Positions 61,852 to 64,000 of a DNA stretch of 64,000 nt are shown here, piece by piece. Source of the DNA: Escherichia coli (GTDB taxonomy: Bacteria > Pseudomonadota > Gammaproteobacteria > Enterobacterales > Enterobacteriaceae); assembly GCF_003790525.1 (NCBI RefSeq), contig NZ_CP033635.1; one strand, 5' to 3'. The position numbers were made by a program, and so were the translations under genes. Every line of letters starts with the position of its first letter. The first letter of the stretch is position 1. The notes beneath the pieces are model-generated. The model was given only the letters and a program-made list of their open reading frames with translations. It was not told the origin of the DNA and ran no database searches.

Positions 61852-62025
61852 ATGAATAATCATGAAGCGCACTTACCTGTAGTGCTTAATGTGCCATCTG
61901 ATTATACGGGGCGCGTTTTGATATTTCTGGATAAAGGGAAAGTGAAATCGCAATGCCGCCTTAGAAATAATGAGGTTATTGGTTCTCTGGCTTTTTTTCT
62001 GAAGCCTGTATTCGCGCCGGAATAA
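61852..62025 (+). CDS. hypothetical small protein (57 aa)
   Basis: within ORF 61783..62025; ATG at 61852 preceded by AGGAGGTGG; overlaps the stop of the upstream frame (ATGAATAA). Confidence 0.5.
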   Translation: MNNHEAHLPVVLNVPSDYTGRVLIFLDKGKVKSQCRLRNNEVIGSLAFFLKPVFAPE

Positions 62026-62055
62026 AGCCGGAATCACTGACAGGAAAATAAAACC

Positions 62056-62355
62056 ATGAAAAAGAAAAATTCTGGCTTTACTGCCAGCGGCCTCGCTCGG
62101 CCTGAAATCCGTCCCGGCTATATTTTCCGTGATAACTACGGCGGTACGGTAACGATTAAAGGCGTGGCAGAACGGCGCATCACCTACCGCCATGAAGGTT
62201 ACGAATATGATTGCGTGATGCCTGTTTATCAGTTTGTGCGTGATTTTTCTCTTGTGCAGGCCGTACCGCGTAACGTGCCCACCAGCAGGGAGAAAGCACG
62301 CGCCAATATTCAGAAGATGAAAACCATGATTAACGGATTCAGGGGTAAAAAATGA
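62056..62355 (+). CDS. hypothetical protein (99 aa)
   Basis: ORF track; same strand and operon context as the following primase-like gene; stop overlaps the next start (ATGA). Confidence 0.55.
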   Translation: MKKKNSGFTASGLARPEIRPGYIFRDNYGGTVTIKGVAERRITYRHEGYEYDCVMPVYQFVRDFSLVQAVPRNVPTSREKARANIQKMKTMINGFRGKK

Positions 62356-64000
62356 AACTGGCACCGAACGTAAAACTGCAGTCACGCGGCATAAAACACA
62401 AAGGAACTGAAGTCATTATTTTTGCGGGTAGTGATGCCTGGGCACACGCGAAACAATGGCAGGAACATGACGCGCGTATGGCCGGAGATAATGAGCCTCC
62501 TGTGTGGCTTGGGGAGCAGCAGTTATCCGAACTGGATAAGCTGCAAATTGTGCCGGAAGGCAGAAAATCCGTGCGTATATTCAGGGCCGGATATCTTGCG
62601 CCAGTAATGATAAAGGCGATTGGTCAGAAGCTGGCGGCGGCTGGCGTACAGGACGCAAATTTTTACCCCGAAGGAATGCACGGTCAGAAGTGTGAAAACT
62701 GGCGGCGTTATCTGAATGCTGAGCGTGAAAATATTGCTGCAGGGCTTACCATGCCGGAGCAGAAAAATACGCAACTGGCACAAATGGCAGACAGTGAGCG
62801 CGCACAGATGCTTGCTGGTCGATTTGATGGCGTTTGTGTGCATCCGGAAAGTGAAATCGTTCACGTATGGCGCGGCGGGGTATGGTGTCCGGTCAGCACA
62901 ATGGAACTGAGCCGCGAAATGGTGGCGATCTATTCAGAGCACAGGGCCACTTTCAGCAAGCGCGTAATCAGTAACGCCGTGGAAGCGTTAAAAGTTATTG
63001 CCGAACCAATGGGCGAGCCGTCCGGCGATTTGCTGCCGTTCGCCAATGGTGCGCTTGACCTGAAAACGGGGGAATTTTCCCCGCACACGCCGGAGAACTG
63101 GATCACCACGCACAACGGCATTGAGTACACGCCACCAGCACCTGGGGAGAACATCCGCGATAACGCGCCAAACTTTCATAAATGGCTTGAGCACGCAGCC
63201 GGAAAAGACCCGCGCAAGATGATGCGTATATGTGCCGCGCTGTACATGATTATGGCGAACCGGTACGACTGGCAGATGTTTATTGAGGCCACCGGAGACG
63301 GCGGGAGCGGTAAAAGTACATTCACACACATAGCCAGCCTTCTGGCAGGGAAACAGAACACGGTAAGTGCTGAGATGACATCGCTTGATGATGCTGGTGG
63401 GCGTGCGCAGGTTGTCGGGAGTCGTCTTATCGTCCTGGCAGACCAGCCGAAATATACAGGCGAAGGAACGGGCATCAAGAAAATCACGGGCGGTGACCCC
63501 GTGGAAATTAACCCGAAATACGAAAAGCGTTTCACGGCTGTAATCAGGGCGGTGGTGCTGGCGACCAACAATAACCCGATGATATTCACCGAACGGGCCG
63601 GAGGTGTGGCACGTCGTCGCGTGATTTTTCGTTTCGACAATATCGTCAGTGAGGCTGAAAAAGACAGGGAGCTACCGGAAAGGATTGCGGCTGAAATCCC
63701 CGTCATTATCCGCCGATTACTGGCGAACTTTGCAGACCCTGAAAAGGCGCGGGCTTTACTACTGGAACAGCGTGACGGTGATGAAGCACTGGCGATAAAG
63801 CAGCAAACGGATCCGGTTATTGAGTTTTGCCAGTTCCTGAATTTTCTGGAGGAAGCACGTGGCCTGATGATGGGTGGCGGTGGCGATTCCGTGAAGTACA
63901 CGACCAGAAACAGCCTGTACCGCGTCTATCTGGCGTTTATGGCATACGCAGGCAGGAGCAAACCGCTGAACGTGGCTGAGTTCAGCAAGGCCATGAAGCC
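62352..64000 (+). CDS. P4-alpha-like primase/NTPase C-terminal-domain protein (D5_N plus P-loop), 3'-truncated by the window end
   Basis: open frame from the ATG at 62352 to the window end (not in the ORF track because there is no stop); Walker A GDGGSGKST; resembles the phage/plasmid primase P4-family C-terminal domain. Confidence 0.75.
   Translation, partial: MKLAPNVKLQSRGIKHKGTEVIIFAGSDAWAHAKQWQEHDARMAGDNEPPVWLGEQQLSELDKLQIVPEGRKSVRIFRAGYLAPVMIKAIGQKLAAAGVQDANFYPEGMHGQKCENWRRYLNAERENIAAGLTMPEQKNTQLAQMADSERAQMLAGRFDGVCVHPESEIVHVWRGGVWCPVSTMELSREMVAIYSEHRATFSKRVISNAVEALKVIAEPMGEPSGDLLPFANGALDLKTGEFSPHTPENWITTHNGIEYTPPAPGENIRDNAPNFHKWLEHAAGKDPRKMMRICAALYMIMANRYDWQMFIEATGDGGSGKSTFTHIASLLAGKQNTVSAEMTSLDDAGGRAQVVGSRLIVLADQPKYTGEGTGIKKITGGDPVEINPKYEKRFTAVIRAVVLATNNNPMIFTERAGGVARRRVIFRFDNIVSEAEKDRELPERIAAEIPVIIRRLLANFADPEKARALLLEQRDGDEALAIKQQTDPVIEFCQFLNFLEEARGLMMGGGGDSVKYTTRNSLYRVYLAFMAYAGRSKPLNVAEFSKAMK

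Follow-up and report, generated by a model that had tools for sequence, protein, structure and literature searches.

The three open reading frames (ORFs) at the right end of our window, a 64,000-nucleotide stretch of Escherichia coli DNA, very probably form the distal end of a rightward operon of a Gram-negative, EcCI-type phage-inducible chromosomal island (PICI) at the cspD-clpS attC site. All three (57 aa, 99 aa and a primase-family protein) proved to be real where the original prediction had placed them, and their strong matches to PHROG 340, 285 and 864, respectively, put them far beyond chance. The island is a variant of a well-described element and nothing new in kind. Annotators can list the locus as a PICI inserted at the cspD-clpS site known from the literature. 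As the experimentally tested EcCICFT073 module is an orthologue of its replication operon, no new biology is required.

We judged class membership by the PICI criteria of Fillol-Salom et al. (2018) together with the five core components of de Sousa et al. (2023). The island carries an integrase gene at one end, a specific attC of a kind that prophages do not use, flanked by direct repeats, alpA, pri-rep with an iteron origin, and terS/cos. Its 10,580 bp lie within the PICI range of about 8-15 kb, and tail, lysis, portal and large-terminase genes are absent. So is a capsid-morphogenesis gene, which is frequent in proteobacterial PICIs (PMC10085698). As four of the five core components are still accepted as a PICI, termed 'Type B' where the capsid gene is absent, the island is a Type B PICI under that scheme (PMC10085698).

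Boundaries and site of the island

The window is 100% identical to part of the complete genome of E. coli TUM1886, where it is chromosomal, so the island could be read past position 64000. Rather than returning immediately to core chromosome, it continues, as predicted, for another 4.4 kb before clpS is reached, and the primase-family gene is not a fragment, as pri-rep is complete at 582 aa. The island lies between yljB/cspD and clpS with the direct repeat ATGATAGTTAT at both ends. A three-way alignment found two copies of this repeat around the island and a single copy in the empty K-12 site, a comparison that also located the distal att repeat the original prediction had proposed to look for. 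The attL core (57809..57819) overlaps the 3' end of the small ORF yljB, and the attR core lies at 31090-31100 of locus L001 (window-equivalent 68389-68399); both are intact and identical at 11 of 11 bases. The same core at cspD-clpS has been published for the PICI EcCIIHE3034 (PMC6092414 Table S1). A 26-nt repeat, GGTGTAGTTAAT, was ruled out as the att core; it does not occur in the empty K-12 site, and the crossover falls within ATGATAGTTAT. Tandem GGTGTAG(T/C)TAAT repeats inside the left end (57913..57969) and again inside the right end (L001 30962-31018) are missing from the empty K-12 site and are probable integrase-binding sites. A tRNA/tmRNA scan of 50000-64000 returned none, and the island is therefore not at a tRNA site.

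This exact mosaic occurs in only five of 5,426 complete E. coli genomes, which come from different sources and carry the island at the identical site with 99.7-100% identity. A yfjI-containing island 3 kb beyond, after clpA, is a separate element.

The gene order is int, alpA, Icd-like, small genes, DUF4222, pri-rep, iteron origin, ssb, perC, proQ/finO-like gene, cos, terS. The 412-aa tyrosine integrase (57993..59231, + strand; PHROG 1, E=1e-67), which very probably inserted the island at the cspD-clpS attC site, is 95% identical to that of EcCIIHE3034. Downstream and co-oriented lies alpA (59651..59860, + strand; PHROG 2790, E=3.5e-17), whose 69-aa product, of the HTH regulator/excisionase family, is 100% identical to EcCIIHE3034 AlpA; the AlpA of EcCICFT073 is an inducer-activator (PMC6092414).

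The replication operon and the frame ahead of it

The small genes before pri-rep begin with a PHROG 2512-like gene (61416..61859, + strand, with ATG 61416 as the inferred start) that matches profile positions 32-153 of this family (E=6.6e-49); a Pfam search with its 147-aa product came back empty. Its stop overlaps the ATG of the 57-aa ORF (ATGAATAA, 61852-61859). The latter (61852..62025, + strand; PHROG 340, E=6.6e-15) has an AGGAGG 10 nt upstream. It exists as predicted, but as a frameshift allele of a 66-aa gene: it has seven Ts at 61992-61998 where relatives with an intact gene, in strains 135 and PI7, have eight; those alleles encode 66 aa and stop 4 nt ahead of the ATG of the 99-aa gene. 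RefSeq labels the ORF 'frameshifted' in the identical genome, and the lesion could impair the function of that gene. The 99-aa protein (62056..62355, + strand; PHROG 285, E=3.3e-27) has relatives in Pfam PF13973/DUF4222, with a length of 99 aa in >100 clusters, and is predicted to fold into a small SH3/Tudor/KOW-like barrel with a C-terminal helix. Of the ATGA-type junctions originally predicted, the one between the 99-aa gene and pri-rep (62352-62355) stands, while a 30-nt gap (62026-62055) separates the 57-aa ORF from the 99-aa gene; the ATG overlap of the 57-aa ORF is with the stop of the upstream gene, which the prediction had not listed.

The proposal that these genes belong to a single operon of an int-alpA island is well supported by Shine-Dalgarno (SD) sequences, by overlaps or tight spacing of the reading frames and by a terminator scan that found no + strand terminator-like site between 60531 and 62500. 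Matches of the small ORFs are confined to PHROGs of unknown function (2512, 340 and 285), and the literature offers no functional information for DUF4222, c1487 or 'Icd-like' in PICIs. The DUF4222 protein probably assists the replicase in an accessory role: its gene always directly precedes and overlaps a gene starting with the Pri-Rep-type N-terminal domain. The same small-gene segment is also found ahead of other replicases, which shows ongoing modular exchange.

The primase-family gene, pri-rep (62352..64000, + strand, with its end at window-equivalent 64100), is indeed cut by the window end, as had been noted, with 549 codons open from ATG 62352 and only 33 codons plus the stop outside. 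It comprises an N-terminal Toprim-like fold, D5_N, an SF3 helicase P-loop and a P4-alpha-type winged-helix domain, and matches PHROG 864 (E=1e-168), D5_N, DUF5906 and Pox_D5 in Pfam, and the SaPI5 PriRep helicase (7OLA) and the C-terminal origin-binding domain of P4 alpha (1KA8) in the PDB. The TIGR01613 primase_Cterm score (108.3 bits) lies just under the curated cut-off of 108.7. Its identity is 94% to the Pri-Rep of EcCICFT073, which experiments have shown to function, and 93% to that of EcCIIHE3034. The description as a P4-alpha-like primase thus holds as far as helicase and origin binding are concerned, whereas a catalytic primase domain is not recognisable in Pri-Rep: relatives of ~800 aa carry a primase domain of ~330 aa that this 582-aa protein lacks. 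That the 'primase' of these islands has no detectable catalytic primase domain could be of interest to specialists. A Pfam search with the N-terminal 135 aa was empty; judging from an alignment, we consider this part to lack the Toprim acidic motifs. The N-terminal domain moves among three helicase classes, always with DUF4222 in front. Directly 3' of pri-rep, three AAAAGCCCTCTACCCC and two GGTAGATGGCAGGTAGARGG iterons surround an AT-rich stretch (L001 26810-27045).

Between alpA and pri-rep, a stop-free frame of 662 codons (59871..61859, + strand) starts 10 nt past the alpA stop with the SD sequence AGGGGAG. It includes the Icd-like domain and the PHROG 2512-like gene, runs antisense through the leftward genes, the YlcI/YnfO-type gene with its terminators included, and has its counterpart in the 428-aa 'icd-like' c1487 of EcCICFT073. 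The frame is open in most related E. coli PICIs and in PICIs of five other genera, with no in-frame stop in nine intervals against 273 in the other two + strand frames. Chance or base composition was rejected as an explanation, as 2,000 dinucleotide shuffles never gave an open frame longer than 315 codons. The translation does not resemble a normal protein (Cys 3.8%, Glu 2.5%). In this allele the Icd-like domain (60627..60830, + strand; NF033153, 51 bits, cut-off 25; PHROG 6196, E=3e-44) has no stop codon of its own, which is removed by a 0.8-kb insert present in nine genomes only.

On the opposite strand, a 63-aa ORF (59999..60190, - strand) is a RefSeq CDS with an intrinsic terminator at 59907-59888 and had zero family matches. 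The 59-aa YlcI/YnfO-family gene (60248..60427, - strand; NF041551, 59.7 bits, cut-off 30; PHROG 949, E=6.5e-22) has a terminator with a 12-bp stem at 60238-60212 according to the terminator scan, and by its sequence pattern the product looks like a ribbon-helix-helix (RHH) DNA-binding protein. Three palindromes (GTGTTCAACAC, GTGTTTAACAC and GTGTTCAACAC; 60478..60529) between the divergent ylcI-like and Icd-like genes are candidate operators. EcCICFT073 has different repeats at this position, and its YlcI allele is 59% identical. Two leftward ORFs of 64 and 56 aa in the insert were rejected as paralogues of each other (not significant, E=0.083), and the 64-aa ORF found no homologue among an index of 5.8 billion proteins; neither is therefore called a gene. 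An Rfam scan of the whole island returned zero matches at E<=1, and there is thus no C4/CI-type antisense RNA beside the Icd-like gene.

Public annotations of the alpA-to-icd region conflict, showing either a single long rightward gene or short leftward genes, and comparative data suggest that both strands are constrained. In the long frame it may be the act of translation itself, not its product, that is selected, in that it would shield AlpA-driven read-through from Rho termination. Antisense transcription may at the same time silence a hidden RHH repressor, the putative binder of the three palindromes before the Icd-like/pri operon. The region thus points to a candidate repressor and switch for Gram-negative PICIs; if this is true, the RHH protein supplies the 'global repressor' that the PICI literature calls unclear for these elements.

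Packaging module and alternative readings

Beyond the window, ssb, perC and a proQ/finO-like gene are followed by a cos of lambda type and a full-length terS resembling lambda Nu1, with no terL. The expectation of cargo outside the window was thus borne out by the cos/terS packaging module, PerC and the ProQ/FinO-like gene, but not by a defence system or capsid-size genes. A PADLOC search of 19 ORFs gave insignificant short matches only (mad1, BrxA, ZorE and mad3; E 6e-4 to 8e-3), and defence cargo was rejected on this ground. Among the 16 island ORFs, PHROG scans found no capsid, head-decoration, portal, tail or lysis genes and TerS as the sole 'head and packaging' match. A capsid-forming PICI (cfPICI) would bring its own genes for capsid, portal, head-tail connector, protease and terminase; of this set, likewise just TerS was found.

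The cosQ-cosN region is intact, with an exact cosN (GGGCGGCGACCT), and nearly identical to cos1 of EcCICFT073; lambda-style R elements, AGATCC(G/T)TTCTT, occupy the R3 and R1 positions. TerS (194 aa; PHROG 57, E=7e-65; lambda TerS 6HN7_B, E=1.7e-40) aligns with lambdoid Nu1 proteins over 93% of its length and is ~70% identical to lambda TerS over residues 1-98. In Rpp-type cos PICIs, an Rpp of 139-154 aa lies beside a cos without phage-like cosB (PMC6739421). Here, the protein following cos is longer and R-like repeats are present, and its similarity to RppA (30% identity over 47 aa only) and RppC (E=0.008) is weak; we therefore rejected it as an Rpp. Given that capsid and head-decoration genes as well as Rpp are lacking, the mechanism of packaging and interference is not simply transferable from the characterised E. 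coli PICIs. Helper TerL may be captured by a lambda-type TerS and cosB that belong to the island and stand in for Rpp, and the replacement of the Rpp/capsid block by a complete lambda-type cos-terS with PerC and a ProQ/FinO-like gene implies a different theft of the helper packaging motor. That continuous translation from alpA to pri-rep, antisense silencing of an RHH repressor and capture of helper TerL by the island's own TerS/cosB all apply together is a tentative proposition that we regard as rather doubtful.

Helper induction, packaging and interference are known for the related EcCICFT073 only (PMC6092414, PMC6739421), and the following course is extrapolated from its 94%-identical module. 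By analogy, a lambdoid helper phage would switch on alpA, and AlpA would activate rightward transcription, so that the coupled small proteins and Pri-Rep would be co-produced. Pri-Rep would then bind the TCTACC/GGTAGA iterons beside its own gene and start island replication, with priming probably by the host because a catalytic primase domain is undetectable. Concatemers would be cut at the island cos, presumably by helper TerL recruited through the island TerS, and be packed into helper capsids.

Could the island instead be a P4-like satellite, dependent on P2, replicating by an alpha primase-helicase and remodelling P2 capsids by Sid, Psu and Delta? The order int, alpA, alpha-like replicase, the C-terminal match to 1KA8 and a score just short of the cut-off for TIGR01613 ('phage/plasmid primase, P4 family') would fit such an element. 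Yet by PHROG, NCBIfam and annotation none of the 16 island ORFs matches the Psu, Sid, Delta or epsilon/Ash families, the replicase lacks the primase domain of its longer relatives, cos and TerS are lambda-type and not P2-type, and the att site belongs to those attributed to PICIs. We thus consider this reading very unlikely and largely refuted already. Less likely still, indeed barely credible, is an integrative element of a different sort, for example a defence island or a plasmid-like replicon that has integrated, with no more than integrase and replicase in common with satellites. While integrative plasmids also combine an integrase with a self-replication module, and defence cargo is common in PICIs, the PADLOC matches are short and insignificant, the annotation contains no conjugation or partition genes, and a phage cos site and terS are present.

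The frameshifted 66-aa gene, the missing block of capsid, head-decoration and Rpp genes known from EcCICFT073 and EcCIIHE3034, and the unusual insert that removes the Icd-like stop in nine genomes raise the question of decay, that is, of a fixed PICI remnant that has kept its genes but lost the ability to excise and transfer. Against this stand the intact and identical att cores, the full-length int, alpA, pri-rep, ssb and terS, all close to functional homologues, and the intact origin iterons and cosQ/cosN. Besides, the near-identical island at one site in five genomes of different sources and the modular exchange evident from the small-gene segment before other replicases also count against it, and a decaying remnant is improbable. 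A Gram-negative EcCI-type PICI remains our preferred interpretation.

Comparison with known satellites

Among the closest known systems, EcCIIHE3034 (E. coli IHE3034, NC_017628 920272-930825; PMC6092414; Fillol-Salom et al. 2018, ISME J) shares the attC, the att core and the size (10.5 kb). Besides Int, AlpA and Pri-Rep, the YlcI-like protein (98% identity), the DUF4222 protein (80%) and SSB (79%) are common to both, whereas the Icd-like/small-gene segment, here from about 60800 to 62055, is unrelated in sequence. The right half of EcCIIHE3034 has genes for capsid, head decoration and a TerS-like protein of 180 aa, in place of which our island has PerC, the ProQ/FinO-like gene and the 194-aa TerS with its lambda-like N-terminal DNA-binding half; overall identity between the two TerS proteins is 51%. 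EcCICFT073 shares the skeleton of int, alpA, leftward small genes, Icd-like, small genes, DUF4222, pri-rep, ori, an 85-aa gene, ssb and perC, and the origins of both relatives are laid out as in this island. It differs in its attC (ycfD-phoQ), in an alpA allele of 59% identity and in having capsid and head-decoration genes and a 144-aa RppA without phage-like cosB. RppA must pair with helper TerS (PMC6739421), whereas our island has a full-length Nu1-like TerS and lambda-style R elements.

P4-like satellites are defined by seven core components (PMC10085698). Phage P4 shares int, an alpA/vis-type regulator, a replicase with an SF3 helicase and the alpha-type winged-helix origin-binding domain, and iterons adjoining the replicase gene, but our island is devoid of psu, delta, sid, epsilon (or Ash) derepressor genes and a recognisable catalytic primase domain, and its packaging signals are lambda-type. 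The pac-type SaPIs of Staphylococcus aureus likewise have Pri-Rep followed by an iteron origin, with a helicase core that our protein matches (7OLA), and, like our island, a small terminase of their own but no large one. They are, however, controlled by the Stl repressor, with divergence at int-stl, rather than by AlpA, and are packaged by headful rather than by cos; cpm or ppi genes of SaPIs were not found in the island.

The E. coli K-12 cryptic prophage CP4-57 occupies ssrA and contains genes of the yfjI type along with toxin-antitoxin genes. It shares the succession of integrase and alpA-family regulator, but the tRNA/tmRNA scan found neither RNA at our island, and the island's content is the replication and packaging set of a PICI. 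Of the layouts originally proposed, the PICI type as opposed to P4 was therefore upheld by the published att core, the Pri identity to EcCICFT073 and the lack of P4 genes, while 'CP4-57-like' adds nothing to this assignment.

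Replication operon and island boundaries

All three ORFs of the original prediction are present in 61852-64000, each with strong family support, and its reading was essentially right: the finding is real and constitutes the replication operon of a phage-inducible chromosomal island (PICI) at a published att site. The 57-aa ORF (61852-62025, +; AGGAGG 10 nt upstream) matches PHROG 340 (E=6.6e-15), and the 99-aa ORF (62056-62355, +) matches PHROG 285 (E=3.3e-27), with relatives assigned to Pfam DUF4222 and 99 aa long in >100 protein clusters. The primase-family ORF (ATG at 62352, +, open to the window end for 549 codons) matches PHROG 864 'DNA primase' (E=1e-168) and scores 108.3 bits, just below the 108.7 cut-off, against TIGR01613 ('primase_Cterm, P4 family'). 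While the predicted ATGA-type junction exists between the 99-aa and primase genes (62352-62355), the 57-aa and 99-aa ORFs lie 30 nt apart. A frameshift accounts for this gap: positions 61992-61998 are a T7 run, whereas the tract reads T8 (strains 135 and PI7) or AATTGTTTT (SCU-125) in intact relatives, whose alleles encode 66 aa, ending 4 nt before the 99-aa ATG. In the identical genome, TUM1886, RefSeq annotates the 57-aa ORF as frameshifted. As T7 also occurs in a second lineage, TUM9812 (95.9% identical), the tract seems unstable; it may be unstable or phase-variable, or the run may reflect recurrent decay.

E. coli TUM1886 matches window positions 57300-64000 at 100% identity, and four further complete genomes do so at 99.7-100%. 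In the 46.7-kb TUM1886 locus around the match (L001; window coordinate = L001 coordinate + 37299), the island runs on for 4.4 kb past 64000 before reaching clpS (L001 31192), beyond the right island end, instead of returning immediately to core chromosome. The primase gene is indeed cut by the window end, but its stop lies only 100 nt further on, and it is complete at 582 aa (Pri) rather than a fragment. Directly 3' of pri is an iteron region (L001 26810-27045), followed by an 85-aa gene, ssb, a PerC-family and then a ProQ/FinO-family gene (L001 27770-28754, outside the window), a cos site, a 194-aa small terminase gene (L001 29042-29626) and a 94-aa gene; the next ~0.9 kb holds no convincing genes.

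An alignment of the two island ends to K-12, whose cspD-yljB-clpS site is empty, located the distal att repeat. The crossover core ATGATAGTTAT occurs at L001 20510-20520 (window 57809-57819) and L001 31090-31100, and once in K-12, giving an island length of 10,580 bp. This core, the cspD-clpS site and a length of 10.5 kb are exactly what is listed for EcCIIHE3034 (Table S1, Fillol-Salom et al. 2018, PMC6092414). A longer repeat, GGTGTAGTTAATGGTGTAGTTAAT, lies inside the island at both ends; we rejected it as the crossover and read it as probably an integrase-binding motif, since it is absent from the empty K-12 site. A tandem GGTGTAGTTAAT motif inside both ends (window 57913-57969; L001 30962-31018) is not the crossover here; for EcCIDI14, a different PICI, this sequence is given as the 'att core' (Table S1, PMC6092414). 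No tRNA or tmRNA gene was found near the island. Outside the window, a second, unrelated island starts 0.7 kb after clpA (L001 34514-46701), with genes for an integrase, a YfjI-family protein, an AlpA-like HTH protein, an inovirus Gp2-type protein, a TOTE conflict-system primase fragment and a large AAA protein.

Replicase, DUF4222 protein and origin

Pri contains the Pfam domains D5_N (residues 151-280), DUF5906, an SF3 P-loop NTPase (314-415) and Pox_D5 (485-575). PDB matches are the helicase core of SaPI5 PriRep (7OLA) for residues 193-430 and the C-terminal origin-binding domain of P4 alpha (1KA8) for residues 486-577. The N-terminal part, which amounts to ~330 extra residues in many ~800-aa relatives, comprises only ~140 in Pri. 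Residues 1-135 (window 62352-62760) have no Pfam match and a weakly Toprim-like fold from which the acidic catalytic motifs are absent. Compared with what we take to be the Toprim motifs, an 'EG' glutamate and DxD, the alignment has 'AG' at the glutamate position of Pri and no conserved DxD; because of these substitutions, Pri is regarded as a putative helicase-initiator with a degenerate Toprim-like domain. Priming for island replication would then be done by the host.

The Pri N-domain also occurs in fusion with DUF927 helicases and with RepA-family helicases, the latter in E. coli islands. DUF4222 always precedes the gene carrying this N-domain, which begins MK(L/S/N/R)AP; of 12 diverged representatives, 11 have an ATGA/GTGA overlap between the DUF4222 stop and that gene's start. 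The DUF4222 protein, whose predicted fold could be assigned only weakly, is thus probably an accessory partner of the replicase.

The origin regions of this island and of the published E. coli PICIs EcCIIHE3034 and EcCICFT073 are built alike, with TCTACC/GGTAGA-type iterons directly 3' of pri that flank an AT-rich stretch in both orientations. In EcCICFT073, pri-rep plus the origin region was shown to drive plasmid replication, and AlpA expression leads to excision and replication, for which int and pri are required (PMC6092414).

The open frame downstream of alpA and a candidate repressor

At 61852-61859 (ATGAATAA), the ATG of the 57-aa ORF overlaps the stop codon of a preceding gene, which is missing from the prediction. 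This gene is the 3' end of a 662-codon stop-free frame (59871-61859, +), which starts 10 nt past the alpA stop behind AGGGGAG. The other two plus-strand frames contain 34 and 44 stops over the same stretch, and none of 2,000 dinucleotide shuffles exceeded 315 open codons. An Icd-like domain (NF033153, PHROG 6196) lies mid-frame and a PHROG 2512-like protein at its end, the remainder being antisense to a 63-aa ORF and a YlcI/YnfO-family gene. Unusually, part of the frame is covered by a ~0.8-kb insert (window 60800-61570) that just 9 of the 5,426 complete E. coli genomes carry; this insert takes the place of the usual end of the Icd-like gene, removing its stop, yet the frame stays open. The leftward 64-aa and 56-aa ORFs of this insert had no family match, and the former no homologue in the protein index.

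The stretch from alpA to the Icd-like stop is likewise open in EcCIIHE3034 (305 aa; L002 9572-10489) and EcCICFT073 (428 aa; L003 2767-4053), and in five of eight diverged loci from Hafnia, Rahnella, Serratia, Enterobacter and Kosakonia; the loci in which it is open include L006, L007, L009, L011 and L012 and most of L017-L096. Among 80 IMG/VR loci, 65 show an open run of 146 codons or more ahead of the Icd-like start. Where alpA was identifiable, the open frame covers >=95% of the alpA-icd interval in 33 of 52, and in these 33 the first ATG is no more than 58 nt from the alpA stop: 31 have it 9-58 nt downstream and the other two slightly upstream. Over nine intervals totalling 2,363 codons, the frame has no stop at all, while the other two plus-strand frames together have 273. 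Public annotations conflict: the EcCICFT073 frame is c1487, a 428-aa 'icd-like' gene, in the PICI paper (PMC6092414), versus short genes on both strands in RefSeq.

What maintains this frame could be either a functional protein or selection merely for being translated. The translation of the bridging parts of the frame is not protein-like (Cys 3.8%, Glu 2.5%, Ser 11%) when compared with real proteins of the window (0.9%, 6.4% and 5.3%, respectively). In open-frame loci, the leftward ribbon-helix-helix (RHH)-type gene is always phased so that third codon positions fall on each other, and in two loci it belongs to a different family.

In the window, this RHH-like YlcI/YnfO-family gene (60248-60427, -) and the 63-aa ORF (-) have their own intrinsic terminators (60212-60238 and 59888-59907, respectively), and three GTGTT(C/T)AACAC palindromes (60478-60529) separate the former from the Icd-like gene. 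EcCICFT073 differs, with a 59% identical YlcI/YnfO allele and other repeats at the palindrome position. According to the PICI paper (PMC6092414), an 'ORF3' reporter fusion depends on AlpA, and the global repressor of Gram-negative PICIs is unclear; we infer that the RHH gene and the three palindromes are a candidate repressor/operator set for this role. An Edwardsiella hoshinae locus (L005 5631-5801) encodes a YlcI-like protein 100% identical to the window copy over 57 aa, with Pri only 50% identical, which suggests that the small YlcI module was recently exchanged between genera.

Packaging module and relation to known PICIs

The annotated maps of EcCIIHE3034 and of EcCICFT073, which has been studied experimentally, share a skeleton with this island: int and alpA, then one or two short YlcI/YnfO-family genes pointing leftward, Icd-like, several small rightward genes, DUF4222, a 'DNA primase family protein', the 85-aa gene and ssb. 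Identities to EcCIIHE3034 and EcCICFT073, respectively, are 95% and 78% for Int, 100% and 59% for AlpA, 80% and 74% for DUF4222, 93% and 94% for Pri, 89% in both for the 85-aa protein and 79% in both for SSB. The replication operon is orthologous to a characterised module. The island has four of the five PICI core components, namely an integrase, an alpA-type regulator, a primase-replicase and a small terminase; as the capsid-morphogenesis component is missing, the island is a 'Type B' PICI in the scheme of de Sousa et al. 2023 (PMC10085698). Its 16 ORFs gave no match to P4 markers (psu, delta, sid, epsilon) or cfPICI markers (capsid, portal, connectors), PADLOC defence models returned insignificant short matches only, and an Rfam scan had no match. 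The PerC-family regulator and the ProQ/FinO-domain protein are island cargo, replacing capsid/head-decoration genes of related PICIs; PerC homologues activate the LEE island. Just 5 of the 5,426 complete E. coli genomes have the whole right-hand block. As a mosaic the element is new, but its type is already known. Only two of its parts are possibly worth experiments, namely the open-frame/RHH arrangement and the lambda-type terS-cosB module.

This packaging module (L001 28800-29626, window-equivalent 66099-66925) has an exact cosN, GGGCGGCGACCT, at L001 28838-28849. AGATCC(G/T)TTCTT occurs at +52 and +153 from cosN (two matches in 0/100 shuffles), with an inverted near-copy, read from the sequence, in between; we take this arrangement to recall lambda R3-R2-R1. 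The 194-aa protein after cos matches lambda TerS 1-98 (6HN7_B, E=1.7e-40; ~70% identity by our own count) and aligns at 57-71% identity with lambdoid-phage Nu1 proteins across 93% of its own length; no terL follows its gene. A lambda-type module of cosQ, cosN, R-like repeats and full-length Nu1-like TerS is thus complete inside the PICI, with neither TerL nor Rpp, and the island's own TerS probably recruits the helper's TerL. The cosQ-cosN stretches of EcCICFT073 (cos1) and EcCIIHE3034 are almost identical to that of this island; further downstream the sequence diverges. The EcCIIHE3034 TerS-like protein resembles the C-terminal half of the 194-aa TerS. RppA, on the other hand, is only 30% identical to this TerS, over 47 aa. 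The island is thus distinct from the Rpp-type cos PICIs (PMC6739421, PMC9026076).
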